Origin: a virus
Taxonomy: Duplodnaviria > Heunggongvirae > Uroviricota > Caudoviricetes
Virus record (IMG/VR): IMGVR_UViG_2698536355_000010
DNA: 39,062 bases
Direction: 5' to 3' (one strand)
The notes beneath the pieces were generated by a model. That model ran no database searches. It was not told the DNA's origin and saw nothing but the letters and a program-made list of their open reading frames with translations. Shown here in pieces: positions 7,701 through 32,633 of the stretch (its first letter is position 1; every line of letters begins with the position of its first letter). The position numbers and the translations under genes were made by a program.

Positions 7701-7821
7701 CACGGGAGTTTCTGATTGCGCCAGCCAGCTCTTTCGAACTGGCCTGTGCAGCACGGAATGGGCGGGTGAGTTTGTCAACCGCATTAAGAATGACCTGCAG
7801 GCGCAGGTTATTATCACTCAT
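4744..7821 (-). CDS. T: tail tape measure protein
   Basis: 1025-aa ORF, coiled-coil N-terminal third, Ala/Gly-rich hydrophobic middle, positioned between E/E' and U. Confidence 0.85.
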   Translation of the reverse strand: MSDNNLRLQVILNAVDKLTRPFRAAQASSKELAGAIRNSRDALKQLNQAGNSLEKFRKLQVDNKKLGDRLNYARQKANLLSSELESMEQPSQRHLVALGRQTLAVQRLEEQQKYLQKQTALVRAELYRAGISAKDDAGATARLARETSRYNQELSKQEARLKRLGEAQRRMNAARASYARSLEVRDRIAGAGATTTAAGLAMGTPVMAAVKSYTSMEDAMKGVAKQVNGLRDDNGNRTARFYEMQDAIKAASEQLPMENGAVDFAALVEGGARMNIANPDDSWEDQKRDLLAFASTAAKAATAFELPADELSESLGKIAQLYKIPTRNIEQLGDALNYLDDNAMSKGADIIDVMQRLGGVADRLDYRKAAALGSTFLTLGAAPEVAASAANAMVRELSIATMQSKSFFEGMNLLKLNPEVIEKQMTKDAMGTIQRVLEKVNALPQDKRLSAMTMLFGKEFGDDAAKLANNLPELQRQLKLTAGNDALGSMQKESDINKDSLSAQWLLVKTGAQNTFSSLGETLRQPLMDILYTVKSVTGALRRWVEANPELTGTLMKVAAVVAAVTVGLGTLAVALAAVLGPLAVIRLGFSVLGIKTLPSVTAAVTRTSSALSWLAGAPLALLRRGLASSGNAAGLLTAPLSSLRRTTSLTGNVLKTVAGAPVALLRSGLSGLRAVAVMFMNPLAALRGGLAAAGAVLRVLASGPLAMLRVALYAVSGLLGALLSPIGLVVTALAGVALVVWKYWQPITAFLGGVVEGFKAAAGPISAAFEPLKPVFQWIGDKVQALWGWFTDLLTPVKSTSAELQSAAAMGRRFGEALAEGLNMVMHPLDSLKSGVSWLLEKLGIVSKEAAKAKLPESVTRQQPATVNTDGKVMMPSGGFPSWGYGFAGMYDSGGYIPRGQFGIVGENGPEIVNGPANVTSRRNTAALAAVVAGMMGVAAAPAELPPLHPLALPAKGGEAMVSRAATVPPAQRIEAPTQIIIQTQPGQSAQDIAREVARQLDERERRLKAKARSNYSDQGGYDA

Positions 7822-8250
7822 CGTTGGCCCCGCTTCTCTGAATCGCTTTATACCGCCATTCCAGCACTTCGGTCAGCGGCATAACGTCAGTAACGGATGG
7901 CGGCCAGTGAAAGATGGTGGCAATATCTGCCACCAGATCGTCAACCGTCAGGCTGTCGGTAAACCGGCAAGCACCGACTTCTTCAACAAAAAAGTGACAA
8001 CCTCAACCGACATGGCAGTGAGATCTGCCGGGTCCATCTCTGCAATTTCCTGTGCGGTCAGTGCCGGGCTGGAGATGCGGGGGATCACGGTCATCATCGC
8101 GTTCACATCCATATCCATAATGGCCTGCAGGCGTGTACCGCGCAGCGCACCGGACTGCGGTTTACGCAGCACAATTTCGGTGATTTCTGTTTTACCGCGC
8201 TTGATAGGGGTATCCAGTTGAATGGTCTTTTCAGTCTGCTTATCGCTCAT
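7814..8250 (-). CDS. E+E' fusion product via programmed -1 frameshift
   Basis: Slippery heptamer TTTTTTG on minus strand (plus coords 7987..7993). Manual translation of the -1 frame from 7987 gives VEEVGACRFTDSLTVDDLVADIATIFHWPPSVTDVMPLTEVLEWRYKAIQRSGANDE with no stops until TGA at 7814..7816, overlapping the T start as in P2. Confidence 0.6.
7948..8250 (-). CDS. E: tail assembly chaperone E
   Basis: 100-aa acidic ORF immediately upstream of T; contains slippery T_TTT_TTG in codons 86-88. Confidence 0.8.
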   Translation of the reverse strand: MSDKQTEKTIQLDTPIKRGKTEITEIVLRKPQSGALRGTRLQAIMDMDVNAMMTVIPRISSPALTAQEIAEMDPADLTAMSVEVVTFLLKKSVLAGLPTA

Positions 8251-8304
8251 TTTGCTGTCCTGTAAATTGGGTTCTGGCGCGGTATCCCGCGCCGTTCAGA
8301 TACA

Positions 8305-8820
8305 TCAGAGGCCGAGGGCGTTGCGGTGCGCTTCCATCAGGTCCACACCGTCCACAATTTCCACCATGTTGATAAGGTCCACTTCATAGAGCACCTCACC
8401 ATTGATGGTCAGCTTCGCGTAGCTGTTGGTACTGGTCACTTTGGTGGTGTTGCTTTCGCCCGTCTTCCACTCACCGGAATCCACTTCTTTGTGACGTCCA
8501 CGCACCACAAGCTCCACGGCCTGCACTTCCCCGGTATCGTCACGCTGGATAGAGCCGGTAAAGCGCAGCTGGATGCCATCCACCGTGGCTTTGCCCATCT
8601 GCTTAAACAGCAGCAGTTCAGTACCACCAATGGAAAATTCTGTGTCCAGCGCACTGTCATCAAGCCCCAGATCCACATCCACTGCCCCCGGCATTCCGCC
8701 GCCGCGATACTTCTCATATTTGCGGGTGAATTTCGGCAGCGTCAGCGACTCAACGATCCCCTGCCAGTTGTTCCCGTCGTTAAACAGGTTCAGGTGTTTT
8801 AATTTGCGTGGTAAAGCCAT
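8305..8820 (-). CDS. FII: major tail tube protein FII
   Basis: 171-aa ORF, position and size of P2 gpFII downstream of sheath gene. Confidence 0.85.
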   Translation of the reverse strand: MALPRKLKHLNLFNDGNNWQGIVESLTLPKFTRKYEKYRGGGMPGAVDVDLGLDDSALDTEFSIGGTELLLFKQMGKATVDGIQLRFTGSIQRDDTGEVQAVELVVRGRHKEVDSGEWKTGESNTTKVTSTNSYAKLTINGEVLYEVDLINMVEIVDGVDLMEAHRNALGL

Positions 8821-8829
8821 GTTGTCCCC

Positions 8830-10002
8830 TTACGCGCTGACCTGGCTGGCGAAATTCACCAGGTACTGATCGGTGATGCGCTGACGCAACATCAGGTTTT
8901 CAAGTGGCGGCACTGGCGTGTAGTCGTAGTCGATGGTGAGTTTTCCGGCTTTCAGAGTGTCTTTGTCGTTCACCGACTCGTCCAGCCAGCAATCACCACC
9001 AATGAGATACCCCTGACTGACCAGGCTGCGCATTTTGGCGCGGATGCCCTCGATAATGTCGCGCGCCAGCGACGGGTTCAGCGGTTTGTCCACTGCCCAC
9101 ATGTGTGCTTCTGCCATCGTGTCCATCAGCACCTGCGCCGTGCGGGTGTAGTTTTCGAAGGCAAAGAGCGGGTCATCACTCAGGCAGCGGGAACCCCAGA
9201 AGCGGAAACCGTCTTTGCGGATAAGGGTGGTGACGTCGTTCTGGTTCAGCAGTCCAGCATCGGTTGCCGTGTCCTGCAGATCCCAGAACACATCAGCAGA
9301 AATTCCAGTGACACCGTTAACGCCCACATTGGACAGGCTTTTGTGCCATCCGGTCTGATCATCAATTTTGGCACGCAGACCAAGCGCACGGGCGGTGGCA
9401 TAAGCCGTTGCTTCGGCATTCAGCACCGTGTCCCAGCCAGTAAAGTCAGGCCAGATCAGCATCCCTTCGCGCTGGCTGAAGTTTTCGCGGTAAGTGATCG
9501 CCTCCTGCACAGTCTTGCAGCCATACGCTGACAGGTAAGCAAACCCACGCAGGCTTTGCGCCACGCCCAGCAACTCAGTAGCTACCGCCTTGGTGTCGTG
9601 GCCTGGCACGCCGAGAATGCGCGGTTTAACGCCGAGCTGTGACTGGGCAGATAACAGGGCTTTCATACCTGTTTTTTTACCTTCAGCAGTCACTGCGCCG
9701 ATGATATTGGTCGTGGTTTCTTCTTCCGTTTCACCCTGCGGCACACGCACAACAACGGTCACGGGTTTTGCCTGGTCAGCGATGGCATCCAGCGAACGGG
9801 CCAGCGTGCCGGACTCACCCGCTTTACCGCTGGCAGTCAGCACATCAGTGATCAGCACGGGTTTATTAAGAGGAAACATTTTTGCATCGGCATCATCGCC
9901 CGTGCAGACCATACCCACGATGGCGGTGCTCACCGTGGTAATGGATCGGGTGCCTTCGTTGACTTCAACAACGCGCACCCCGTGGTGGTAATCCTGAGCC
10001 AT
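8830..10002 (-). CDS. FI: tail sheath protein FI
   Basis: 390-aa ORF, P2 gpFI-like, first gene of F operon. Confidence 0.85.
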
Positions 10003-14865: not shown

Positions 14866-15211
14866 TCTCTGCTCCTGTTGATACGGAAAGGGAAACAGGC
14901 ACACCGTTATTACGCCGCCCGGTCAGCTCCACCACCATTGAACCGTCAAAATTGCTGTTAATGGTGATGGAATCCAGCGTCAGCCGTGGCTCCCAGCGAC
15001 TCAGCGCCACATACACTGCCGACATGACCTGCAGGCGTAATGCCGGATTTTGTGGCTGGTCTATCAGTGCCGACAGCAGAGAACCATATTCCCGACGGGC
15101 AATACGGCTACCCTGCGGTGTCAGCAGAATGTCCCGCACCGACTGGCGCAGATGGTCAATATCAGTAATGACTTTACCGCTGGTATTGTTCATCCCGATA
15201 TAAAGCGTCAT
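14852..15211 (-). CDS. W: baseplate wedge protein W (gp25-like)
   Basis: 119-aa ORF MTLYIGMN...; P2 gpW-like. Confidence 0.8.
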   Translation of the reverse strand: MTLYIGMNNTSGKVITDIDHLRQSVRDILLTPQGSRIARREYGSLLSALIDQPQNPALRLQVMSAVYVALSRWEPRLTLDSITINSNFDGSMVVELTGRRNNGVPVSLSVSTGAENGSD

Positions 15212-15786
15212 ACCGGGCCTCCGGTTGTATCGCCGCCTTTCAGGACGCCAGTATGCTCATGGTCGTCAACCACGACTCCGTTGGAACTCATCGCGCCGCC
15301 GCCTTGGGTGACGCCACCATTGATCACCACCTCGCTGTTGATGCGCGTGGTGTCAGCCTCCACCACAAACTGACCGGTTTTGAGGGTGATATTGTCTGCC
15401 GCCTCGATCACCATGGATTTGATACCCCGGACGTACCATCGCCCGGTGGCGGGTTCGTACTCAAACCTGCCGCCGTCCGGGTACTCCGTCACGCAGCCGT
15501 CCACGGAATCCGACGGAGGCGCAAACTGACTGGAGTAGATGGCGGGCAGCACAAAAGCGGTTTCCAGATTGCCCCCCATGCTCAGCACCACCACCTGCTC
15601 ATCCGGCGACGGACACCACCATGTACGGGCACCACCGGCACGCAGCGTCAGCCAGTTAATCCAGTTGGTTTCGAGGTCGCCTGTTTTCACCCGGCAAAGC
15701 CAGTTTTCCCGATCCACTTCGGTCACGGTGCCGGTGCGGATCAGGTTGGTGATAAGGCGCATGATTTCGGTTAGTTGTGCGTTCAT
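15208..15786 (-). CDS. V: baseplate spike/assembly protein V
   Basis: P2 gpV-like; start placed at ATG 15786 (MNAQLTEIMRLITNLIRTG) by alignment to remembered P2 V N-terminus; ATG 15762 is an alternative. Confidence 0.8.
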   Translation of the reverse strand: MNAQLTEIMRLITNLIRTGTVTEVDRENWLCRVKTGDLETNWINWLTLRAGGARTWWCPSPDEQVVVLSMGGNLETAFVLPAIYSSQFAPPSDSVDGCVTEYPDGGRFEYEPATGRWYVRGIKSMVIEAADNITLKTGQFVVEADTTRINSEVVINGGVTQGGGAMSSNGVVVDDHEHTGVLKGGDTTGGPV

Positions 15787-15832
15787 ATGGAAATCATTGC
15801 CTATCGTAAACGACAGTGATATTAAAGAGGTT

Positions 15833-15850
15833 TGTGCAGTCACCCACACA
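15833..15850 (-). promoter_or_regulatory. candidate Ogr/B-dependent late promoter element (P_V)
   Basis: tgtgcagtcacccacaca, TGT-N12-ACA with the same extended pattern and orientation as the P_F and P_O dyads; centre only about 55 bp from V ATG. Confidence 0.4.
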
Positions 15851-15884
15851 AGATGATCATCAAATCTGTTTTGGAAGGATTCTT

Positions 15885-17405
15885 ATGAGTTGCTTAGATC
15901 AATTATCTTCAGAAAATAAAAAATCCCTATTATCATCAGTATTTTCAAAGAGCTATTTCCTCTGGATTGGCTCTGGATTTTCGTACAATTTCGGATATCC
16001 AAGTTGGGGGGCCGTACTTGAAGAAATAGCAAAGCGAATAGAGTACCCGTTAAAATTAGATTCATCACAGCCTCTGCGTGCTGCAGAATTACTTTTAAGT
16101 TATGCGATGAGTGAATCATCAATAAAAGAATATGATTTCAATTCGCTCGTTGCCAGGACGATTATAGATTTAAAAACAGAAACTAAAGAACCAAGATGGC
16201 TTAAAAGATTCAAACTCTTCGCTCCCAATACAATTGTAACAACTAACTGGGATGAGGTGCTTGAAGAAACATTTGAGCATATGGCAAATAAAATCATCAG
16301 AAAGGATCCATTCCCTAAAGTATCAACAAAAGGGAAAAATATCTTCAAAATTCATGGTGACGTCGGAAAACCTGATTCGATTGTTATAACACAAAGTCAA
16401 TACTTTTCTTTTCAGCGCGAAGACACTTATCTTAGCCGAAAAATTTACACATTGTTTTCAGAAATGTCCCCTATATTCATCGGTTACAGCTTAACCGACC
16501 CAAATATAGGTTTCCTTTATGAAGAAGCATTAGCACATCTGCATGGAAAAAACCCGCCAGCATTCATGGTAATTCACCCAGATGCAAACCCTTTAACTTT
16601 CGAGGAGACAAAGTATTTATTTAAATCAAAAAATATACACCTGATTAAAGCAACCATAGAAGACTTCCTTGCAGATTTATCTCAGGAATATAAATCCTTT
16701 AAAGAATCACCTCATCGTTTCAACCTTGAGCACGAACATGTTCTTCCCAAAATAAAAACTGTAATGGATACCGTTACGAAAGGAAAAAAAAATAAAAAAG
16801 CGGAACTAGAAGCCTTATGTCCTCAAAGAGCTGCAAGCTGGGCCGTGACAAAAGCCATAATTGACATTCTAAAGAAACCAATATTGTACATTCAATTCGG
16901 CGGAAAACTTCTTTCTCCAGACAATATTATCCCCTACAGAGAGTTCGATGCTTTAGTTAATGTAGTCATAACACTTAGCAACAATCACGGTTACCCTGAC
17001 GAGCTTATACGTCAAGATTTTCATGCTTCTGTTGTCAAAATGTGCATCGAAACAGAAGGGGTTTGGGACTTCAACTATGCTGAAGTACCTTTCTCTAACA
17101 TTTTAAGAATAAGCCCTAGCCCCGGCACTGAAAGTTTCGACAAAAAAATATCCCATATAATAGAAATTATGCGATGGTCGTCCCCATCTGAAATAGGGAA
17201 GTGCTGGGCAACATGGAATGTATTTAAAGAAAAACAAGATTGGATTAGCCACAGTGATATTGTTGGCATTCTTTCGAAACTTGAAACCGATGGTGACTTA
17301 GAATACCAACCCAGAGATAAAAAATGGCTAAACATCCTGAAAAAATGCCCTCACGCAACGGCTGCAGATATCAAGAGAATTGATACTCTGATAACCCCAG
17401 CTTAG
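15885..17405 (+). CDS. SIR2-like (DHS-like NAD-binding fold) protein with uncharacterised C-terminal domain
   Basis: Motifs FLWIGSGFS (GxGxS), IVTTNWDEVLEE (TTNYD-type), KIHGD, IFIGYSLTDPNI; ATG 15885 preceded by GGAAGGA; gene strongly AT-rich versus flanks. Confidence 0.8.
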   Translation: MSCLDQLSSENKKSLLSSVFSKSYFLWIGSGFSYNFGYPSWGAVLEEIAKRIEYPLKLDSSQPLRAAELLLSYAMSESSIKEYDFNSLVARTIIDLKTETKEPRWLKRFKLFAPNTIVTTNWDEVLEETFEHMANKIIRKDPFPKVSTKGKNIFKIHGDVGKPDSIVITQSQYFSFQREDTYLSRKIYTLFSEMSPIFIGYSLTDPNIGFLYEEALAHLHGKNPPAFMVIHPDANPLTFEETKYLFKSKNIHLIKATIEDFLADLSQEYKSFKESPHRFNLEHEHVLPKIKTVMDTVTKGKKNKKAELEALCPQRAASWAVTKAIIDILKKPILYIQFGGKLLSPDNIIPYREFDALVNVVITLSNNHGYPDELIRQDFHASVVKMCIETEGVWDFNYAEVPFSNILRISPSPGTESFDKKISHIIEIMRWSSPSEIGKCWATWNVFKEKQDWISHSDIVGILSKLETDGDLEYQPRDKKWLNILKKCPHATAADIKRIDTLITPA

Positions 17406-17408
17406 AAT

Positions 17409-17861
17409 TTAGTTATCTTTTGTCATCCACCTCAAGAGAGTGTTTAGAATTATCTGGTTACTCTCTTGGGTTTGTCCCAGCAATCTGCGAGCTGGGTATT
17501 TAATACTTTTGCTTCTTTTACCTATCCGCTCTCTCAATCCGTAGTGGTGAACACGGGCAATGCGCTGTACCTTGCCTTCAAACTGCACGCTGGCAGAGTC
17601 GGCGCTGGCGGAAGTTTTCAGGTATTTTGTGGTGCGCAGCTTTGCAAACATCTGACGTTTGATACGGCCTTTTTTACTGCGTGCTGTTACCCGTCGCGGT
17701 TCATAACTGCTGCCATCTGGATTGCGCTGCATTCTGATATTTTGCTGCTGTGTCCGGCGTAGTTCCTGCGCCAGCTGGCGCATCATGCGGCTTCTTGCGG
17801 CTGGCTCCAGATTCGCCAGCAAGGCACTCAGCCAGTCGTCCACTTTCTGCAGTTCAGCCAC
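17409..17861 (-). CDS. S: tail completion protein S
   Basis: 150-aa ORF in P2 gpS position; its stop lies 3 bp from the convergent SIR2-like stop. Confidence 0.8.
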   Translation of the reverse strand: MAELQKVDDWLSALLANLEPAARSRMMRQLAQELRRTQQQNIRMQRNPDGSSYEPRRVTARSKKGRIKRQMFAKLRTTKYLKTSASADSASVQFEGKVQRIARVHHYGLRERIGKRSKSIKYPARRLLGQTQESNQIILNTLLRWMTKDN

Positions 17862-22391: not shown

Positions 22392-23204
22392 TCAGCAATT
22401 GGTCAGAGTGTCAGCGGGGGCGTTACCGCCTGTTGCACGCTGGCGGTAGTCCTGGCGGCTGTCTTCATGACTCAGCTTATTCACCAGTTCGTTAAAGGCG
22501 GTCTGCTGTGCCTGCAGGGCAGTCTCCAGCTCAGACAGGGATTTTTCGGTACGCACACTCAGGTTTTGCTGCTCAGTGGCGACCAGCTCCACGGCCTTAT
22601 GCACATCAGAGAACCGGGCGTCATCGGACTGCTCTTTTTTGGTAAACAGCGCCGTGACACGGGCAAACAGGGACGGTTTGTCCTCCTGGATTTCTTCCAG
22701 TTCGATCACCGTTTCCTCTGCAGCGGTAAAAAGATTGGCGGGATTCTGCTTGCGGTTTGCCAGCGGGTTATGGGCTGCACTGGCGCTGAATGTCAGCATT
22801 TCAGTGCCCAGACTGGCAGGGTCATCAGTGGCAGCCAGGCCGACCAGGTAGGCTTTGCCCGTATCAGCAAAGTTCGGGCTGACTTCCATAGAGGTGAATA
22901 ATTTCTGGCCTTTTTTCACCAGTTCCACCAGGGACTCCGTTGGCTCAACGTCGGCATACAGCGCCATCTTGCCTGCCAGCGGACCTTCCGTGATTTCTTC
23001 AGCAAACAGCGCCGTCACCTTGCCGTAGCGGTTAAAGGTGCTGTCCGGCAGATAAGACTTGATGTGCTCAAGGTTAATCAGCGCGGTATACACCGCCGGG
23101 TTGTAGCTGGCTGCCATCTGTTCCAGCCATTCACGCTGGATTTCGCGTCCGTCGGTGGTGGCACCTTCCACCCCGATGCGAAAACGCTTTGCTTTCACTG
23201 TCAT
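22392..23204 (-). CDS. O: capsid scaffolding protein O
   Basis: 270-aa ORF in P2 gpO position. Confidence 0.85.
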   Translation of the reverse strand: MTVKAKRFRIGVEGATTDGREIQREWLEQMAASYNPAVYTALINLEHIKSYLPDSTFNRYGKVTALFAEEITEGPLAGKMALYADVEPTESLVELVKKGQKLFTSMEVSPNFADTGKAYLVGLAATDDPASLGTEMLTFSASAAHNPLANRKQNPANLFTAAEETVIELEEIQEDKPSLFARVTALFTKKEQSDDARFSDVHKAVELVATEQQNLSVRTEKSLSELETALQAQQTAFNELVNKLSHEDSRQDYRQRATGGNAPADTLTNC

Positions 23205-23282
23205 GAGCCGTGCTCCGTTAGAAAAAACTTACTGGAGCCTTATGGTTGCGGTGATAGGGGCAGTGAAACAATGCGCGGTATT

Positions 23283-23300
23283 TGTACCGACAACCACACA
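23283..23300 (-). promoter_or_regulatory. candidate Ogr/B-dependent late promoter element (P_O, possibly shared with P_P)
   Basis: tgtaccgacaaccacaca, TGT-N12-ACA dyad centred about 87 bp upstream of O start in the O/P divergent intergenic region. Confidence 0.5.
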
Positions 23301-23346
23301 AACCGCAGGCGGGGAAAGCCTTCATTCAAGGCTGTAGGTTTGTTCC

Positions 23347-25113
23347 ATGAACACCACACTGACACCCGCAGATCTCGATCCCCGTCGGCAGGCCATGCTG
23401 CTGTACTTTCAGGGATACCGCGTAGCCCGCATTGCTGAAATGCTGGGCGAGAAAGTTGCAACCGTTCACAGCTGGAAAAAACGCGACAAGTGGGGTGACT
23501 ATGGGCCGCTGGATCAGATGCAGCTCACCACCGCCGCACGCTACTGCCAGCTCATTATGAAGGAGCACAAAGAAGGGAAAGATTTCAAAGAGATTGACCT
23601 GCTGGCGCGCCAGTCGGAACGCCACGCGCGGATCGGCAAGTTTAACAATGGCGGCAACGAAGCCGACTTAAACCCTAACGTCGCCAACCGCAACAAAGGC
23701 CCGCGCCGTCAGCCGGAAAAGAATGTTTTCACCGATGAGCAGATTGAGAAGCTGGAAGAAATCTTCCATTCCTCCATGTTCAACTACCAGCACCACTGGT
23801 GGGAAGCCGGAAAAACCAACCGCATCCGCAACCTGCTGAAGTCACGCCAGATCGGCGCGACCTTTTACTTTGCCCGTGAAGCCCTGATTGACGCTCTGCT
23901 TACCGGACGTAACCAAATTTTCCTTTCCGCCAGCAAGGCACAGGCCCACGTCTTTAAGCAGTACATCATCGACTTCGCTAAAGAAGTGGAGGTGGAGCTG
24001 AAAGGCGATCCGATGGTGCTTCCTAACGGGGCCACGCTTTACTTCCTCGGCACCAATGCCCGCACGGCCCAGAGTTATCACGGCAACCTGTATCTGGATG
24101 AATATTTCTGGATACCGAAATTCCAGGAGCTGCGCAAAGTGGCTTCCGGTATGGCTATTCACAAAAAATGGCGACAGACCTATTTTTCCACGCCATCCAG
24201 CCTGACACACAGTGCTTATCCGTTCTGGTCCGGTGCGCTGTTCAACCGTGGGCGCAACAAAGCCGATAAGGTGGACATCGACCTGTCCCACAGCAATCTG
24301 GCCCCCGGCCTGCTGTGCGCAGACGGACAATACCGCCAGATAGTCACCGTGGAAGATGCGGTGCGCGGCGGCTGTAACCTGTTCGACCTTGACCAGTTGC
24401 GCATGGAATACAGCCCGGACGAATACCAGAACCTGCTGATGTGTGAGTTCGTGGACGATCTCGCGTCCGTGTTCCCGCTCAGCGAACTGCAGGCGTGCAT
24501 GGTGGACAGTTGGGAAGTCTGGACCGACTTTCATGCACTGGCCCTGCGCCCGTTTGGCTGGCGCGAAGTATGGATCGGTTATGACCCCGCAAAAGGTACT
24601 CAGAACGGCGACAGTGCCGGATGCGTGGTGGTGGCACCGCCAGCCGTACCGGGCGGTAAATTCCGCATTCTTGAGCGTCACCAGTGGCGCGGGATGGACT
24701 TCCGCGCTCAGGCTGACGCCATCAAAAAACTGACCGAACAGTACAACGTGACTTATATCGGTATCGACTCAACCGGCGTTGGTCACGGGGTTTACGAGAA
24801 CGTGAAAGCATTCTTTCCTGCCGTCCGGGAGTTTGTCTACAACCCCAACGTTAAAAACGCCCTGGTGCTCAAGGCCTACGACATTATCAGCCACCGCCGT
24901 CTGGAGTTTGACGCCGGGCACACCGACATTGCGCAATCATTTATGGCAATCCGTCGCGCTACCACCGCCAGCGGCAACCGCCCGACCTATGAAGCCAGCC
25001 GCAGCGAAGAAGCCAGCCACGCCGATCTGGCCTGGGCAACGATGCACGCACTGTTTAACGAACCGCTGCAGGGCGAATCCGCCAATGCCAGCAATATTGT
25101 GGAGATTTTTTGA
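23347..25113 (+). CDS. P: terminase ATPase (large) subunit P
   Basis: 588-aa ORF, P2 gpP-like. Confidence 0.9.
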   Translation: MNTTLTPADLDPRRQAMLLYFQGYRVARIAEMLGEKVATVHSWKKRDKWGDYGPLDQMQLTTAARYCQLIMKEHKEGKDFKEIDLLARQSERHARIGKFNNGGNEADLNPNVANRNKGPRRQPEKNVFTDEQIEKLEEIFHSSMFNYQHHWWEAGKTNRIRNLLKSRQIGATFYFAREALIDALLTGRNQIFLSASKAQAHVFKQYIIDFAKEVEVELKGDPMVLPNGATLYFLGTNARTAQSYHGNLYLDEYFWIPKFQELRKVASGMAIHKKWRQTYFSTPSSLTHSAYPFWSGALFNRGRNKADKVDIDLSHSNLAPGLLCADGQYRQIVTVEDAVRGGCNLFDLDQLRMEYSPDEYQNLLMCEFVDDLASVFPLSELQACMVDSWEVWTDFHALALRPFGWREVWIGYDPAKGTQNGDSAGCVVVAPPAVPGGKFRILERHQWRGMDFRAQADAIKKLTEQYNVTYIGIDSTGVGHGVYENVKAFFPAVREFVYNPNVKNALVLKAYDIISHRRLEFDAGHTDIAQSFMAIRRATTASGNRPTYEASRSEEASHADLAWATMHALFNEPLQGESANASNIVEIF

Positions 25114-26147
25114 TGGGAAAGAGTAAGAAGAACCGCGCTGCGGCGACGAATCAGATCCAGCTTAAAAGTCAAACTACAGCCGAAGCATTCAGCTTCGGCG
25201 ATCCCGTTCCTGTTCTGGACCGCCGAGAATTACTGGACTATGTGGAATGCGTACAGATGGACCGTTGGTATGAGCCGCCCGTCAGCTTTGACGGACTGGC
25301 GCGCACCTTCCGCGCTGCCGTGCATCACAGTTCCCCGATTGCAGTAAAGTGCAACATTCTGACCAGTACCTATATCCCTCACCCGCTGCTCAGCCAGCAG
25401 GCTTTTTCACGTTTTGTGCAGGACTACCTGGTATTTGGTAACGCCTACCTGGAGAAACGCACGAACCGCTTCGGTGAAGTTATCGCCCTTGAGCCTGCGC
25501 TGGCAAAATACACCCGACGCGGGTTAGACCTGGATACCTACTGGTTTGTGCAATACGGTATGACAACCCAGCCGTATCAGTTCACGAAAGGCAGCATTTT
25601 TCATCTGATGGAACCGGACATCAACCAGGAGATCTACGGCTTGCCCGGCTATCTTTCTGCCATTCCATCCGCCCTGCTCAACGAATCCGCCACGCTGTTC
25701 CGCCGTAAGTATTACATCAACGGCAGCCATGCAGGCTTCATCATGTACATGACCGACGCCGCGCAGAATCAGGAGGATGTGAACAACCTCCGCAACGCGA
25801 TGAAAAGCGCCAAAGGTCCAGGCAACTTCCGCAACCTGTTTATGTACTCGCCTAACGGCAAAAAGGACGGGCTTCAGATCATTCCTCTGTCAGAAGTCGC
25901 AGCGAAGGATGAGTTTCTGAATATCAAAAATGTCAGTCGCGATGACATGATGGCAGCACACCGCGTACCGCCGCAAATGATGGGGATTATGCCGAATAAT
26001 GTTGGGGGTTTTGGGGATGTGGAGAAGGCGAGTCGAGTTTTTGTGCGAAATGAATTGAGGCCACTACAAAAGAGCCTATTAGAGCTGAACAACTGGTTAA
26101 AGGAGGATGTAATACATTTTGAGGATTATAACTTAGATATTCAATAA
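25110..26147 (+). CDS. Q: portal protein Q
   Basis: 345 aa; AEAFSFGDPVPVLDRR..LDYVEC...WYEPPVSF matches remembered P2 gpQ; last approx 60 codons AT-rich and divergent. Confidence 0.9.
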   Translation: MMGKSKKNRAAATNQIQLKSQTTAEAFSFGDPVPVLDRRELLDYVECVQMDRWYEPPVSFDGLARTFRAAVHHSSPIAVKCNILTSTYIPHPLLSQQAFSRFVQDYLVFGNAYLEKRTNRFGEVIALEPALAKYTRRGLDLDTYWFVQYGMTTQPYQFTKGSIFHLMEPDINQEIYGLPGYLSAIPSALLNESATLFRRKYYINGSHAGFIMYMTDAAQNQEDVNNLRNAMKSAKGPGNFRNLFMYSPNGKKDGLQIIPLSEVAAKDEFLNIKNVSRDDMMAAHRVPPQMMGIMPNNVGGFGDVEKASRVFVRNELRPLQKSLLELNNWLKEDVIHFEDYNLDIQ

Positions 26148-26151
26148 TCTT

Positions 26152-26175
26152 AAAAACCTGCATATGCAGGTTTTT
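26152..26175. terminator. bidirectional hairpin terminator between Q and the cargo operon
   Basis: aaaaa-cctgcatatgcagg-ttttt, palindrome flanked by an A-run and a T-run. Confidence 0.6.
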
Positions 26176-26210
26176 ACATTATATAGTTATAAAACTAACA
26201 AAAATCATAT

Positions 26211-26876
26211 TCAAAGCTCTGAGTCTACAGGCTCATGATAAAGGTTTACAGGGTAGTGTATAACCTCATAATTAAGTTGACTAACAGTGTGAGTATGTTG
26301 ACTGTAAAAAACCAATGGGTTTCTCTTACAAGGAGTTATCGAGATAGACTTACAAGCATGAATTCTTGGAGCCGATTTATCTAAATGAGCCTTCCACTTA
26401 GTCATCATTTCATTACATTTTTTATTACGCGTATATATAATTAACCCACCACTTGCACTGTCTACAGTACCAGTGCTATATCGCTCAGTGAGTTGTGCAT
26501 ACCCTTTAAATAAATAACCATATGAACCAGTGTGTTTTTTGGCCTCGCCATGCCAAGTAAATCTATTCAACTTTATTGTTATATCACAATGACCTCGTTG
26601 ATTATTTTCATGATATGCTTCAATTCCCATATCTTTATTTTTTATATTTGCCAGTAAAATTAAAGTAAGCTGATCTTCTGTTAAATCAAAATTCAATTTA
26701 TTTGAATTTTCCTCAATTGCCTGTACAGCAGAATCAAGCTCAATTCTTACAAACTGTTTGACGTTCTCATACGACTGGAGAGCAAACCTAACGCGAGTAA
26801 TAGAAGCATTGATACGCTGAAGAAAAATATCATTATCAATTTCAGCTAAACTCATTGGTGCAGACATTTTTAACAT
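26211..26876 (-). CDS. hypothetical protein, cargo operon gene 3 (possible PD-(D/E)xK-like motif)
   Basis: 221 aa; ATG overlaps upstream stop (ATGA); HCDITIK...(14)...GEAKK resembles a D...ExK motif; AT-rich. Confidence 0.6.
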   Translation of the reverse strand: MLKMSAPMSLAEIDNDIFLQRINASITRVRFALQSYENVKQFVRIELDSAVQAIEENSNKLNFDLTEDQLTLILLANIKNKDMGIEAYHENNQRGHCDITIKLNRFTWHGEAKKHTGSYGYLFKGYAQLTERYSTGTVDSASGGLIIYTRNKKCNEMMTKWKAHLDKSAPRIHACKSISITPCKRNPLVFYSQHTHTVSQLNYEVIHYPVNLYHEPVDSEL

Positions 26877-27310
26877 CAGACAATATCCTTTAATTTAGAT
26901 TCATCTAATGTAAAAAAAGGAAAGACGAAGGACTTATAGTCATACATAATCTCCCCTGTAAATGGGTTTACTAAAGATTGATTAATTTCAGCCTCTATAA
27001 CATCTTCTAACTCAAGCTCAATAGGATCATGAAAATCATCAATAAACCAATAATTGAGTTTTAAAAACTCAACCTTTGGACTACAAAGAATTTGTATAGC
27101 TGGGTACACAACCTGCTCATATGCTTCAGGTTGTATACATCCTTTATAACCATTAACGATACTAAATAAATCTTTATAACTCAGAGCTATATTAGGCGAT
27201 TTCTTTGCTCTCACACCAATTTCATCATACAAATAGCAAGCTAGCGCCCCTATATCAGGGCGCTCTGCACATATTTCTTTGATGATCTGGGGCATATCAC
27301 CATCCTTCAT
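26876..27310 (-). CDS. hypothetical acidic protein, cargo operon gene 2
   Basis: 144 aa from ATG 27310 with GGAG 6 nt upstream; tightly packed between genes 1 and 3. Confidence 0.55.
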   Translation of the reverse strand: MKDGDMPQIIKEICAERPDIGALACYLYDEIGVRAKKSPNIALSYKDLFSIVNGYKGCIQPEAYEQVVYPAIQILCSPKVEFLKLNYWFIDDFHDPIELELEDVIEAEINQSLVNPFTGEIMYDYKSFVFPFFTLDESKLKDIV

Positions 27311-27322
27311 TGCTGACTCCAA

Positions 27323-28429
27323 TTATAATATCAGCTTTGTGAGGGTTTCGAAATCATCTTTGGATATACATTTGCTTAATATAGCATAATTGACAGGAGA
27401 GCACCCACTACCACCTAAATGTCTGCGTAATGTTCCTGGAATGATAAGCTCTACACTATCCGCCAATTGCAATTTTGGATTATTCCTATCTACTCTAATT
27501 CCAATACGATATAAACCAATATTACCTACAGCTTTAATGCCCTCTTTATTAAACAGATCATCACGCAAGTCTTTCTTAGCCACATTTTTCTTTTCCTTAT
27601 GAGTGGTTCCCTCATAAGTTAAAAATGACAAATCGAACACCTTATAACTTAAACTTGAATATGGCATTACATTTTGCTTGAAAATTGGCTCAATTAATGG
27701 ATAAAAATCCTTTTCCGATGAATTAAATTGATAACCTGCGCAATTATATAACTCACGAATAAAATTCGTTTTCGCAAAAACGATATTATCACCAACAACA
27801 TTACCATTAGTATCAATTAATACATGGATTTTATTTGAAGCTGAATCTAATATACACACATCAAAACACTGACGTTTTTCTTTTCTCTTCGCAATGATTT
27901 CATCAAACTGTTTGTATGCTGCTAACTTTGACGGAGGGACTTTCTCTCTTACAACCAGCTCCCTGATAGATGAAAATACCAAAATAGACTGAGTATTTTG
28001 CTTAGAGTAATTAACAAGCTCAAGTTGATTTTTAATAGCATGCTGTAATTGAACATCATCAACAATCGTTTCGACTAATGATGTTGGTTGCTTCATCATA
28101 TTCCATTGGAGAGCATATCTATCATCAAGTAATTTAATTACTTGACTATCTACAGACAAACTAAATATTGCTTTTTCACCATAAACAACCTGCCCAAAGA
28201 CTAAATCATTTACACTTGCAATGATTTTGTCAAATTTTTGCCTATCTTTCTTTTTAAAATCAATGAGGCTTTCTAGTATTTTGTCGTTTGTTGCTTCACG
28301 CCCTCTACCTGTAGGTAGCCCTAAAGAAGCAATAATTGGTCTGGCGATATGCCACGTAAAACGTTCAGTTAAGGCTAAGATCGACTTTAACTCAAAGTCA
28401 GAAAGCACCACTGGGACACCACTTGTCAT
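27323..28429 (-). CDS. hypothetical protein, cargo operon gene 1
   Basis: 368 aa from ATG 28429 with AGGTG upstream; no nucleotide-binding or other motif recognised by eye; AT-rich. Confidence 0.6.
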   Translation of the reverse strand: MTSGVPVVLSDFELKSILALTERFTWHIARPIIASLGLPTGRGREATNDKILESLIDFKKKDRQKFDKIIASVNDLVFGQVVYGEKAIFSLSVDSQVIKLLDDRYALQWNMMKQPTSLVETIVDDVQLQHAIKNQLELVNYSKQNTQSILVFSSIRELVVREKVPPSKLAAYKQFDEIIAKRKEKRQCFDVCILDSASNKIHVLIDTNGNVVGDNIVFAKTNFIRELYNCAGYQFNSSEKDFYPLIEPIFKQNVMPYSSLSYKVFDLSFLTYEGTTHKEKKNVAKKDLRDDLFNKEGIKAVGNIGLYRIGIRVDRNNPKLQLADSVELIIPGTLRRHLGGSGCSPVNYAILSKCISKDDFETLTKLIL

Positions 28430-28589
28430 AACATGCACCTAGTCAACCCAAAAGCAATTGAAAATCGCTCTTGTCTTAATTTTTTCCATCAATATCTAAC
28501 AAATTACCTTAATGTTGAAAAAGTTTGCAAGCCATTTGCGTCTAAAAAGTGACTTGACTCAATGTGTTACAAAGCTTAGCGAGCGCGCG

Positions 28590-28608
28590 CTCGTATCCCC
28601 GCCACGCC
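28590..28608 (-). other. cos-like cohesive-end site
   Basis: Minus strand reads GGCGTGGCGGGGATACGAG followed by CGCGCGCT, closely resembling the remembered P2/186 cos (GGCG[A/T]GGCGGGGAAAGCA...GCGCGCT). Confidence 0.5.
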
Positions 28609-28647
28609 TGCCCGCTTTATGTAGTGGTTTTCATGCACCTGCATGAC

Positions 28648-28676
28648 ATAAGCAAAAGCCCGCCAGCTCTGGCGGG
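28648..28676 (-). terminator. rho-independent terminator downstream of HNH gene
   Basis: Stem gcccgccag/ctggcgggc (28657..28676) followed on minus strand by TTTTGCTT. Confidence 0.5.
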
Positions 28677-28790
28677 CATCAGCAAAAACGATCCTCAAAC
28701 GATCATGCGATTTCATGCGACATAGACATGCGTTGGCAAAAATGTACGAAATACTCAGCTTACAGGAAATGGTCTTTTTCCAACCTCCAG

Positions 28791-29510
28791 TTAGCCAAAG
28801 CAGAAACCAATATTGCAATTTGAAACTCCACAGTTGTGAAATTGATGTGGACCGACTCTTAGCTTGTGTTCGTCTCCTACAATCCGAGTCCCCTTAACCA
28901 ACATATCTAATCTTTCCACAATCAATCTTTCAGGCGCATCAACTTTAATAATTAAACGAGGACCTTTCCTTTTTTCTATAATAGTTATTCTAGGACCAAC
29001 AACCTGAACATCCCAATGCCTTGCACTACAAACCCACTCATTCTTAATTAATTCAAGATTAACAATACCTTGACTATCGTAAAATTTACCCGAAATAAGA
29101 AAAGCATTATTTTCTTTTTCAATGGTTAACAATGGCTCATTTTGAAACATTATTGGTACAGTACAGGATTCAAACGTCGCACCACCAAATATTATTGTTG
29201 GATGCCTATCAGAAAAGTCCAATATATCGGCCACATTCCCTTTTTGTAAGGCTGCAGGAGATTCCATTGCTTTAATTATTTTCTCTTTAGAGTAAAGACG
29301 TTTCGTTACTTTCGCATGGCACGTAGGACAAAGTAGTGCTATTGCATTTGGAGAGTGCTCCTTTGCATCAGCGTATGTGGGAATTACATGCTCATACTCA
29401 ACAATGGGAGAAGCACAAACAACGCAACCAAAGCCACAGCGCTGCCTTACCTCCAGTTTTACAGGTTCAGGAATTGTTCTAGATAACCCATGCTTGTTAA
29501 TAGTTGTCAT
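28791..29510 (-). CDS. HNH-endonuclease-domain protein
   Basis: N-terminal CGFGCVVC...EYEHVIP...N...LLCPTCH (HNH pattern); C-terminal 160 aa unassigned; AT-rich; AAGGTAAGG before ATG. Confidence 0.7.
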   Translation of the reverse strand: MTTINKHGLSRTIPEPVKLEVRQRCGFGCVVCASPIVEYEHVIPTYADAKEHSPNAIALLCPTCHAKVTKRLYSKEKIIKAMESPAALQKGNVADILDFSDRHPTIIFGGATFESCTVPIMFQNEPLLTIEKENNAFLISGKFYDSQGIVNLELIKNEWVCSARHWDVQVVGPRITIIEKRKGPRLIIKVDAPERLIVERLDMLVKGTRIVGDEHKLRVGPHQFHNCGVSNCNIGFCFG

Positions 29511-30218: not shown

Positions 30219-32633
30219 TTAATACAGGTTCCGCCACTTATCATCTTCCTGCAAACGCTGGTTCCGATAGAAGATACGCAGGCCTGCTCCTGACGGAATA
30301 CTGCCACCGCGAAGGAGCAAATCGACCTCTTTCTCGCTGCCATCAAATCCTCTGGACTTCAGTTCATAGACGAGCTGCTGACGCTGATACTCTGTAATTC
30401 GCTGTTTGTAGTCTTTACGCCGTTTCGGTTTAACCAGGCGTAATCTTGCTGCCAGTTCCCGGCGCTCTTTTTTGCTCATACTGTGCAGGTAATCGTGCAA
30501 CTCCTTGTCATCCATGCGGGTGATATCCGTTCTGGTATCCCCATCAGCTGATTTGTCTTTCCCTTGTTGGTTCAAATTTTCAGCAAGGGGACAGTTATTG
30601 CCACGAGTCCAAGGGGCGCAAGCGCCCTGGTCGGCTGCCGCCTCCTGAACGTCAACGGCTTTACGAACCATTTTCCACTTCACTGCATGAGTGCAGATCT
30701 TGCCCTCTGCAATGGGTGACCAGATGCCATAAATACGAATGCCGTGATCGCCATAGGCGGTCGGCTCTTCGTTGATTTCATAAGCGGTTCTGATGAGGTG
30801 ATATTTACGGGGAACCAGTACGCCGCCCTGCTTCATGATGTAGGTGGCAAAACAACCAGCATCAGCAGCAGCCAGAATGGCATCAAGGCGCGGGTTATCC
30901 AGTACCGGCGCACCTGCTTTTTTGTCACCCTGTTGCCTTGCCGCCTGACCAGCCAGCAAGCGAAGTTCACGGTAAGCCTGACGCCCCGGAATACCAAAGA
31001 AGCGGAATTGCTGAACACGATGCAGAGACGCCCAGGCATTCACGTATTCAGCGTTATCACGCAGAGATTTACCCGTTTCCTTGCTGATCTCGCCAGCCAG
31101 ACCACGACCGTCAATGTTCTTACTGATATATTTCGCGATGTAGCTTGTCGGCGTTCCTTTGCGCGGGTTAATCAACTCAGACTTAAAGCGCGGCCCAGTG
31201 TTATTGCCCAGCTCCTCGCGGTCTTCACGGATGGCAAACTTACGCAGTAATGCAGTGATGGCACGGCGGTCTTTTTTGCGCATGAAACACAACAGGTGCC
31301 AGTGAACTGTGCCATCATGATGCGGCTCAGCCACCCGCACGCCATACCAGCGCAACCCGGCTTTGTGCATCGCCTTACGAAATGCAGCAAACATGCCGAC
31401 CAGATAATCGCTGCTTTGTCTTACCGTCGCGTTTGTCCAGGTCGGGTTTGGTCTGCCGTTATTTAGCGTGGAATGGAAACGCGACGGACAGGTGATAGTG
31501 TAGAAAACGGCGCAGTCACCGCGCATTTCCGCGATAAGCTCCAGACCTTTAACACAGGCCATCATCTCATTGCGGCGATGCGCAGGGTTGCTGCTGCTGG
31601 CGTTTACCACATCCTCCATGTCCAGCGTGTCGCCGTCTTCGTTCACCAGTTCATGAGAACGGAAAAACTCCAGCGACTTACGGCGCTGCTCACGTTTATG
31701 CATCACGGCTTCATAGCTGACATAAGGAGATGCTTTTTTGCTGACCAGGCAAACAGCGCGCAACTGCTCTTCCCGCCATTCGCAACGCATCTTCCATAAT
31801 TTCCGATACCACCAGTCGGCGCACAACATACGCGCCAGCGAACCCGGAATGAGTTCATAGGGCACGGGTTTACGGCGGTTTCTTTTCCGGCGGAGTTGCT
31901 CAAACGCAGGTGGGATGACATCCAGACGCAGGGTTTCCGCTGCCACCTTTTCCCATGTCTTGCGGATTTCTTCTGGCTTAACGTCATCGGTGGCATACAA
32001 ATCACCACAAGCTGCATCAAGGCACATACTCATATGCGCAGCTACCAGGGTGGACAGGCGTTTCACCTGATCCTGACTCATTTCAGGCAGGATCAGCAGG
32101 CCGTCCAGCCCTTCATGGCTTGCCATAAAGCGAAAAGATGCAGATAGCTGACTGTCGCGTACATGCTCCAGTCGTTCCAGACATGGCTTAATCGTCTCAC
32201 GTAAATAGCGGGAATAAGCCTTTGGCCTGCCCAGGCTGCTGAAGTATTCAATACGTTGCATCAGCGGCTTGCTGATATGGGAAGGCTGGGCGTTGACGTC
32301 CGCCAGAATGACCATGTCTGAATTAAAACGCTGCTGCTCATGCGCCAGCTTTGCCCGGCTAATGAGCTTATCCTGCTCCATTTCGCGCTGGACAGGATCA
32401 CGTGATTCATTAAAGAAATAACGCTCCCAGACCTGATCACTCAGTGCCTCGCGGCGCAACTGTTCCTGCTCGTTATCGGCAGCGTACAGAGTGATCAGGT
32501 TTGAAAGCGTAGAAACCGGCGCAACTTCCGCCGGGTCCAGATAAGGGTTAATGGCCTTTTTCGGGCTGTTCCATGAGAATGCTGCGGCAGCCTCGTTAAA
32601 GCCGCAGCAGTTGTTCATATCGGCATGACTCAT
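30219..32633 (-). CDS. A: replication initiation endonuclease A (rolling-circle)
   Basis: 804-aa ORF, P2/186 gpA-like size and position. Confidence 0.85.

Follow-up and report, generated by a model that had tools for sequence, protein, structure and literature searches.

The 3' ends of two essential genes of a P2-like prophage of Escherichia coli, the portal gene Q and the tail completion gene S, are AT-rich and are very probably not locally evolved pieces of these core genes. The prophage corresponds to the whole of IMG/VR record IMGVR_UViG_2698536355_000010 (39,062 nt; this entire stretch is hereafter referred to as the window), as judged from its map of open reading frames (ORFs), Pfam matches and BLAST searches against phage and E. 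coli collections, and is drawn in the orientation opposite to that of the P2 map (Table 1). The AT-rich ends are very probably parts of exchangeable modules, moved by homologous recombination in the flanking sequences, with the gene termini hitch-hiking alongside the accessory genes (hereafter referred to as cargo). The joints lie inside the coding sequences, the replaced ends are linked to the neighbouring cargo, the canonical ends have been replaced, and the pattern recurs across the family.

The G+C content (GC) of the Q body (25113-26029) was 0.531, with a value at third codon positions (GC3) of 0.647, as opposed to 0.347 and 0.368, respectively, in the last 118 nt of the gene (26030-26147, hereafter referred to as the Q tail). 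The GC of the adjoining three-gene operon (26211-28438) was 0.343. Reference values were obtained from all 118-nt windows (GC) and 38-codon windows (GC3) of 16 core phage genes. Mean GC was 0.559 (standard deviation 0.042, minimum 0.441), none of the 118-nt windows being as low as the Q tail, and a GC3 this low was found in just 0.4% of the 38-codon windows. A preliminary description of this DNA, made from the sequence alone, had reported an abrupt AT-rich shift at the 3' end of Q with retention of a portal-like C-terminus. Both statements hold: composition is not uniform, and the Pfam Phage_portal match spans residues 95-329 of the 344 residues of the protein. The shift affects all codon positions, and the amino-acid composition is therefore altered too. 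A sequence search of the PDB with Q yielded no match, so the replaced segment was not placed on a solved portal structure.

The same description set the start of the shift at 25960, about 60 codons from the end of the gene, a span (25960-26147) with a GC of 0.420. This proved too long. The likelihood ratio for synonymous-codon usage (core versus cargo) changes sign at 25995, and sequence identity to relatives breaks at 26030. The stretch 25975-26029 encodes a conserved motif, QMMGIMPNNVGGFGDVEKA, the final block common to all E. coli relatives, and its codons are fairly AT-rich in every relative (GC3 0.53-0.59), with or without cargo. The foreign segment of Q therefore comprises about 39 codons rather than about 60. 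Nucleotide divergence across 47 Q loci was lowest (0.13-0.15) just upstream from the tail. A plain test for a single change point in GC3 was noisy in Q (break at 26106, p=0.017) and not significant in S (p=0.17); more was learned from the likelihood ratio for codon usage and from the breaks in identity.

The joint in Q is seen most clearly in the comparison with E. coli 17MR471, which has 9 mismatches to the window over the 2.7 kb of P and Q from 23347 to 26029 (99.7% identity) but diverges by about 40% from 26030, past the Q stop codon and into unrelated cargo (a ParA-family gene and others). This collapse of identity places the junction inside Q. In strains HS, N18-04097 and MS115-1, identity to the window breaks off at the same site (26026-26033), and the cargo of this slot also differs in HS, N18-04097 and E2. 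Four other relatives share the slot cargo with the window. SA53-3 is 3.9% diverged up to 25917 and then has three mismatches as far as 28529, giving a left junction at about 25918; STEC384 is diverged up to 24960, its left junction lying inside P; for KFu019 and S3, the whole region compared is near-identical to that of the window. In all four, identity to the window ends at exactly 28731, the end of the cos core, which forms the constant right boundary of the shared tract. The same cassette is thus found on differing backgrounds with variable left junctions, as expected for cassette exchange by homologous recombination, and an identical Q tail is carried by Q bodies differing by up to 3.9%. 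A search of 26148-28800 at the nucleotide and protein levels recovered nothing of the canonical Q tail, or of the GC-rich spacer of about 155 nt between Q and cos, indicating replacement rather than insertion.

Linkage between tail and cargo was scored, at an identity of at least 99%, in 5,426 complete E. coli genomes, about 1,260 of which carry a Q of the window type. The Q tail with its terminator (query 26030-26215) was present in 12 genomes, exactly those with the three-gene cargo. The break at 26030 and this linkage support the earlier suggestion that the operon arrived by recombination inside the 3' end of Q, bringing a heterologous terminus with it. The intragenic joint and the new terminus stand, but the event was a replacement, not an insertion, and it is no isolated case: the pattern is the rule at both hotspots, beside Q and beside S, across genera.

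A similar shift had been noted at the 3' end of S, next to the SIR2-like gene, and this observation was borne out. GC was 0.554 in the S body, 0.398 (GC3 0.452) in the tail (17409-17536) and 0.372 in the SIR2 gene, and the change point in codon usage (17540) agrees with the position at which identity breaks (17537). Aligning the two genes with their counterparts in related prophages, as the preliminary description had advised, therefore puts a break within each coding sequence. Three relatives lack a gene between S and V. Their identity to the window is about 95% on either side of this locus, with no alignment over 15794-17536, the interval occupied by the SIR2 gene and the last 42 or so codons of S; identity returns at 15793, 7 nt upstream from the V start. 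The S tail and the SIR2 gene were found in exactly the same seven of the 5,426 genomes, none of which was among the 12 with the Q tail. The replaced S end retains the family pattern Y..R.LLG....L.W, most of its residues being different. A TGT-N12-ACA sequence (Ogr-type activator site) lies upstream from V, at 15833-15850 on the minus strand; it is specific to the cassette and differs in sequence from the site in the cargo-less relatives. The swapped S/V unit therefore supplies a late-promoter element in addition to a gene terminus.

The pattern was then assessed in 63 Enterobacterales Q loci (one genome per species) and in 80 viral contigs with S. In the nine Q loci with cos less than 300 nt after the stop codon, GC3 remained at 0.66-0.70 to the end of the gene, whereas it was 0.45, 0.40 and 0.36 in the last three bins of the 49 loci with at least 600 nt of cargo (Mann-Whitney p=1.2e-4). 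Likewise, the S tail had a GC3 of 0.62 in the 17 loci without cargo, as opposed to 0.43 in the 30 with cargo (p=1.6e-6), and the position of the S junction varied among loci. In Q, the identities of tail and body were uncorrelated in cargo-bearing loci (rho 0.02) as opposed to cargo-less loci (rho 0.68), and the GC3 of the tail tracked the GC of the cargo (rho 0.63) rather than the GC3 of the body (rho -0.18). A further set of 80 viral contigs, chosen by tail peptides, contained more than 50 different Q tails. Many ORFs of 50-80 amino acids in databases correspond to the portal C-terminal end alone, some of them on megabase-sized contigs (P0001-P0084), which suggests that truncated Q remnants or miscalled genes are frequent next to cargo.

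We infer the following pathway from these comparisons. The Q-side module would extend from Q codon 306 to 7 nt before the cos cohesive-end sequence, and would consist of the replacement Q terminus, a hairpin terminator, the three-gene operon transcribed towards Q and the operon leader. Such modules would pass between P2-like prophages by homologous recombination, with one crossover at any point in Q or P at which donor and recipient retain similarity and the other in or at the 150-bp cos core. The crossover point nearest to the cargo would be the conserved block ending at 26029; the last 40 or so codons of Q would be carried every time because they lie between this last good homology and the cargo. 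The S/V module would likewise comprise the S terminus, the convergent SIR2-like gene and its own activator site for the V late promoter, and the replaced termini are presumably functional. Left junctions that vary, with a right boundary that stays at the cos core, are to be expected from homologous exchange of modules. The distance of 7 nt to the cohesive-end sequence fits a route involving a cos end and a homologous crossover, as in the speculation of Rousset et al., in which cos ends would initiate the exchange, with completion by a homologous crossover (PMC9122126). Chi-stimulated crossover was considered and rejected, there being no Chi site anywhere in the window.

Several observations weigh against module exchange with hitch-hiking termini. 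The searches yielded no donor whose Q was AT-rich throughout, GC3 being 0.5-0.9 in all the Q bodies examined. The S tail is GC-normal despite the presence of S/V cargo in two of the loci (L171 and L159) and in P2, in which GC3 is 0.55 in the tail and 0.58 in the body. At deep divergence, tails were weakly more alike in loci with homologous cargo (0.654 versus 0.628, p=0.03). Finally, the three-gene operon adjoins Q in a total of 21 E. coli genomes, the 12 already mentioned and nine others, of the MS115-1 type, in which it is 85% identical; the tail of this type is 70% identical to that of the window, being canonical to about 26109, with just the last 12 or so codons window-like. Tail and cargo can thus be separated, and the alignment indicates that repeated crossovers are able to shorten the hitch-hiking tract.

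Several collections were searched for a donor of the Q tail. With tblastn, the best match in 50,697 phage records had 77% amino-acid identity, and all matches were from ordinary enterobacterial P2-like phages. A search of 5.8 billion proteins returned short Q fragments alone, at most 82% identical apart from the sequence itself, and the Q bodies of the 80 viral contigs chosen by tail peptides were all GC-normal. The S bodies recovered were likewise all GC-normal. Hitch-hiking from a P2-like phage alone is therefore insufficient to account for the AT-richness, which most likely stems from a long shared history with AT-rich cargo. Possible sources include unsampled low-GC P2-like viruses, old alleles at mutational equilibrium, and selection; P2-like virus genomes of about 35-40% GC have been reported (PMC13100340). 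On one reading, the termini could be long-standing balanced alleles whose composition has drifted down to the mutational GC equilibrium (about 0.35) through lack of gene-conversion partners. They would then constitute a natural experiment on what maintains GC content.

The C-terminal 40 or so residues of the portal and S proteins could instead be subject to selection for novelty or for a match to the cargo, for example in escape from defence systems sensing either protein. The large number of Q tails in the viral contigs, the concentration in the tails of amino-acid divergence, and not just synonymous divergence, and the perfect linkage between tail and cargo within E. coli would all fit such adaptive diversification. 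We nevertheless consider it improbable. Physical adjacency explains the linkage without selection, and the variability is seen only with cargo and is accompanied by a composition shift at all codon positions, which points to shared history rather than protein selection. Moreover, MS115-1 has the same cargo family with a largely canonical Q tail, and L171 has cargo with a canonical S tail. A more specific version, in which the termini are matched parts of the cassette, each portal or S C-terminus being compatible with, or immune to, the linked cargo, seems very doubtful. If true, cassette and terminus would form a self/non-self pair, the cargo being, for instance, a defence directed at virion-assembly proteins of competing P2-like phages.

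It is most unlikely that the Q and S ends are native sequence turned AT-rich in situ, by drift or selection without intragenic recombination, whether by mutation biased towards AT, the spread of xenogeneic-silencer binding or transcriptional read-through from convergent cargo. Such a process would account for the correlation of tail GC3 with cargo GC, the gradient in GC3 towards the cargo (from 0.53 to 0.36), the lack of an AT-rich donor phage and the direction of the amino-acid differences from the canonical tail, most of which, as read from the alignment, run from GC to AT. However, in the comparison with 17MR471, an identity of 99.7% gives way to about 60% over a few bases at 26030, S has just as sharp a junction at 17537, identical tails occur on diverged Q bodies, and tails are uncoupled from the body phylogeny. 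The sharpness of the junctions in these alignments argues against change in place as the proximate cause; it may account for ancient AT-richness, but not for the mosaic in the window. The variable regions of P2 have reportedly been linked to site-specific recombination (Nilsson et al., in 2004), and the cargo might be a small integrative element targeting the 3' ends of Q and S and providing a replacement end. Four independent comparisons do lose identity at 26026-26033, leaving the gene intact with a heterologous terminus, but this explanation is highly improbable, given that the modules lack integrase, transposase and recombinase domains (Pfam, PADLOC), a displaced duplicate of the Q end or spacer (26148-28800) and repeats, that the left junctions of a single module range across more than 1 kb (at 24960, at 25918 and farther upstream), that S junctions vary from locus to locus, and that the hotspots harbour almost no transposable elements according to Moura de Sousa et al. 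(PMC13586616).

Both loci are established defence hotspots of P2-like phages. The cos-proximal gpA-gpQ defence hotspot (tin/old, or "TO" region) has been described (Rousset et al. 2022, PMC9122126; Moura de Sousa et al. 2026, PMC13586616), and this hotspot, the variable loci of the tail region and a very fast turnover of cargo have all been published (PMC9122126; PMC13586616; bioRxiv 10.1101/2024.10.15.618418; PMC6823313). The Q-side slot of the window has the same location (between A and Q, beside cos), variable AT-rich cargo and near-identical phages with unrelated cargo, such as 17MR471 (99.7% identical in P and Q), and exchange at the hotspot is thought to require homologous flanks, possibly together with cos ends. 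The published accounts treat the hotspot at the level of genes, with gpQ as a conserved flank, whereas here the last 39 codons of gpQ belong to the variable unit. In addition, the hotspot of the window consists of two independently assorting slots separated by the cos core, and its main cargo is on the Q side of cos, tin/old being on the A side in P2. In the words of the 2026 survey, the recombination behind the rapid turnover of cargo "still need[s] to be elucidated" (PMC13586616). Another survey of P2-like viruses from 2026 found no recombination signal (PHI test) in the hallmark genes analysed (PMC13100340), whereas the gpQ 3' end is recombinant in most cargo-bearing members.

The S-V locus, occupied in P2 by the non-essential AT-rich gene orf30, is also variable in P2-like phages, such as R18C (PMC6823313). 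As in P2, the accessory gene of the window is convergent with S and lies upstream from the Ogr-dependent V promoter. However, the S terminus and the activator site of the V promoter are swapped in the window and in most cargo-bearing relatives, whereas the S tail of P2 is GC-normal. In the searchable literature, which did not include Nilsson et al. 2004, a paper that may describe them, we found no account of joints inside Q or S or of AT-rich replacement termini. Hotspots and rapid swapping having already been published, the intragenic junctions are a modest addition, by which the unit of exchange extends into the essential genes Q and S and, in the S/V slot, includes a late-promoter element.

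Core sequence beside a hypervariable locus subject to diversifying selection is also co-transferred at gnd, the neighbour of the O-antigen rfb cluster in E. coli, in which the core flank displays excess divergence and a phylogeny uncoupled from that of the remainder of the genome. Here, by contrast, the tract is short and intragenic, with a sharp proximal limit, and has the base composition of the cargo rather than that of another allele. When e14 or phage 21 integrates at icd, or elements integrate at tRNA genes, the incoming DNA supplies a replacement 3' end. In those cases, as in the window, an essential gene is kept intact by a heterologous terminus, often of different composition, but here there is no integrase, att repeat or displaced duplicate, and the junctions are variable. 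The morons and mosaic junctions of temperate phages described by Juhala, Hendrix and colleagues are intergenic, with joints usually at gene boundaries. The modules of the window resemble morons in being AT-rich units between core genes, with sharp novel joints relative to otherwise near-identical phages, a probable terminator on the Q side and a base composition of their own (GC 0.34 and 0.37 in the two cargo units, 0.56 in core genes); they differ in that the joints lie inside Q (26030) and S (17537), at both hotspots and in most of the family members sampled. What emerges is a refinement of known biology rather than a new mechanism: a recombination joint, with its hitch-hiking flank, at a hotspot already described. 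In practical terms, the last 40 or so codons of gpQ and gpS should be trimmed before these sequences are used as phylogenetic markers or hotspot anchors, and an AT-rich gene end is a cheap sign of adjoining accessory cargo.

Table 1. Features of the window, with the limits of the conserved and replaced segments.
Feature	Position	Strand	Remarks
V	15208-15786	-	
S/V-slot cargo	15794-17408	+	SIR2-like gene 15816-17405, convergent with S
S, tail completion	17409-17861	-	
Heterologous AT-rich S 3' end, 42 codons	17409-17536	-	LRERIGKRSKSIKYPARRLLGQTQESNQIILNTLLRWMTKDN*; GC, unalignable to canonical tail
Conserved S body, codons 1-108	17537-17861	-	Pfam Phage_tail_S match
O, N, M and onwards	below 23204	-	
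P, terminase	23347-25113	+	
Q, portal	25113-26147	+	344 amino acids
Conserved Q body, codons 1-305	25113-26029	+	Phage_portal match, 99.7% identity to 17MR471; QMMGIMPNNVGGFGDVEKA encoded by about the final 50 nt (25977-26029)
Heterologous AT-rich Q 3' end, 39 codons	26030-26147	+	SRVFVRNELRPLQKSLLELNNWLKEDVIHFEDYNLDIQ*; GC, divergence, cargo linkage
Hairpin A5-CCTGCA-TA-TGCAGG-T5	26152-26175	.	between convergent Q and cargo operon
Slot-1 cargo, three-gene operon	26211-28438	-	371, 148 and 221 amino acids; convergent with Q, GC 0.34
Cassette-specific leader, cos to first cargo gene	28439-28582	-	not alignable to prophages with other cargo
Conserved cos core, 150 bp	28583-28731	-	matches P2 cos region
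Cohesive-end sequence, 19 nt	28590-28608	-	GGCGTGGCGGGGATACGAG
Slot 2, tin/old position of P2	28732-29560	-	HNH-domain gene 28791-29510 (Pfam HNH)
A, replication gene (replication-endonuclease homologue)	30219-32633	-	

The hairpin immediately downstream from Q has a predicted RNA folding energy of -15.1 kcal/mol (z = -5.9 relative to shuffled sequences). It was not called by a simple terminator scan, because its stem has few G-C pairs, but from its sequence and position it is probably a bidirectional intrinsic terminator replacing the tQ of P2. An antisense promoter-like match in the Q tail (26153 to 26125) was judged to be a chance match in AT-rich DNA. The three proteins of the cargo operon (slot 1) had no match in Pfam or PADLOC, and a literature search by their accession numbers was also negative. 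Homologous operons, with 44-61% amino-acid identity, lie beside Q in Rosenbergiella and Plesiomonas prophages (L002, 7108-9326; L042, ~7484-9660; L055, ~7068-9280), and the operon is a candidate uncharacterised defence system. The leader between cos and the first cargo gene is 84% identical to that of MS115-1 and presumably contains the operon promoter; a scan of this leader for the sigma-70 consensus gave no match.

Resemblance to defence proteins was limited to the HNH gene of slot 2 and the SIR2 gene of the S/V slot. The SIR2-like protein matched Pfam SIR2_2 and, in PADLOC, PDC-S25 (E=8e-29) and ThsA-like STALD (E=7e-25). Its gene stands alone, with no partner gene, and ends 3 nt from the S stop codon. 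The SIR2 cassette (seven genomes) and the three-gene cassette (12 genomes) were never found together in the 5,426 complete E. coli genomes. Both are present in another IMG/VR record, UViG_2695420487_000013 (L176/L097), which is 99.98% identical to the window over 22947-29144.

The cos core is 80-97% identical in all relatives, with or without cargo, and is the sole conserved island from Q to the DinI-like/A region. An exact search for the 19-mer of the P2 cohesive end, with up to three mismatches, yielded no match; BLAST with the P2 cos region placed cos at 28582-28640. In P2, the Q stop codon is 186 nt from the cohesive end, with tin/old beyond cos, whereas cos lies 2.4 kb beyond the Q stop codon in the window, the three-gene operon therefore being located between Q and cos. 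Slot 2 differs in each of SA53-3, S3, STEC384 and KFu019, although slot 1 is common to all four. Slot 2 thus assorts independently of slot 1, and the cos-proximal hotspot is made up of two slots split by the cos core.

A G+C-rich hairpin followed by a T-run (GCCCGCCAGAGCTGGCGGGC TTTT) was observed within the cos core, at 28658-28677 on the minus strand. It probably ends slot-2 transcription before cos, and a similar element adjoins cosR in P2. Several E. coli genomes contain internally deleted P2-like remnants, in KFu019 (L001), S3 (L093) and E2 (L088), in which tail, sheath or terminase genes are truncated and fused. The Q 3' end, the cargo and cos are kept in all three, which suggests that the accessory module is retained after decay of the prophage.

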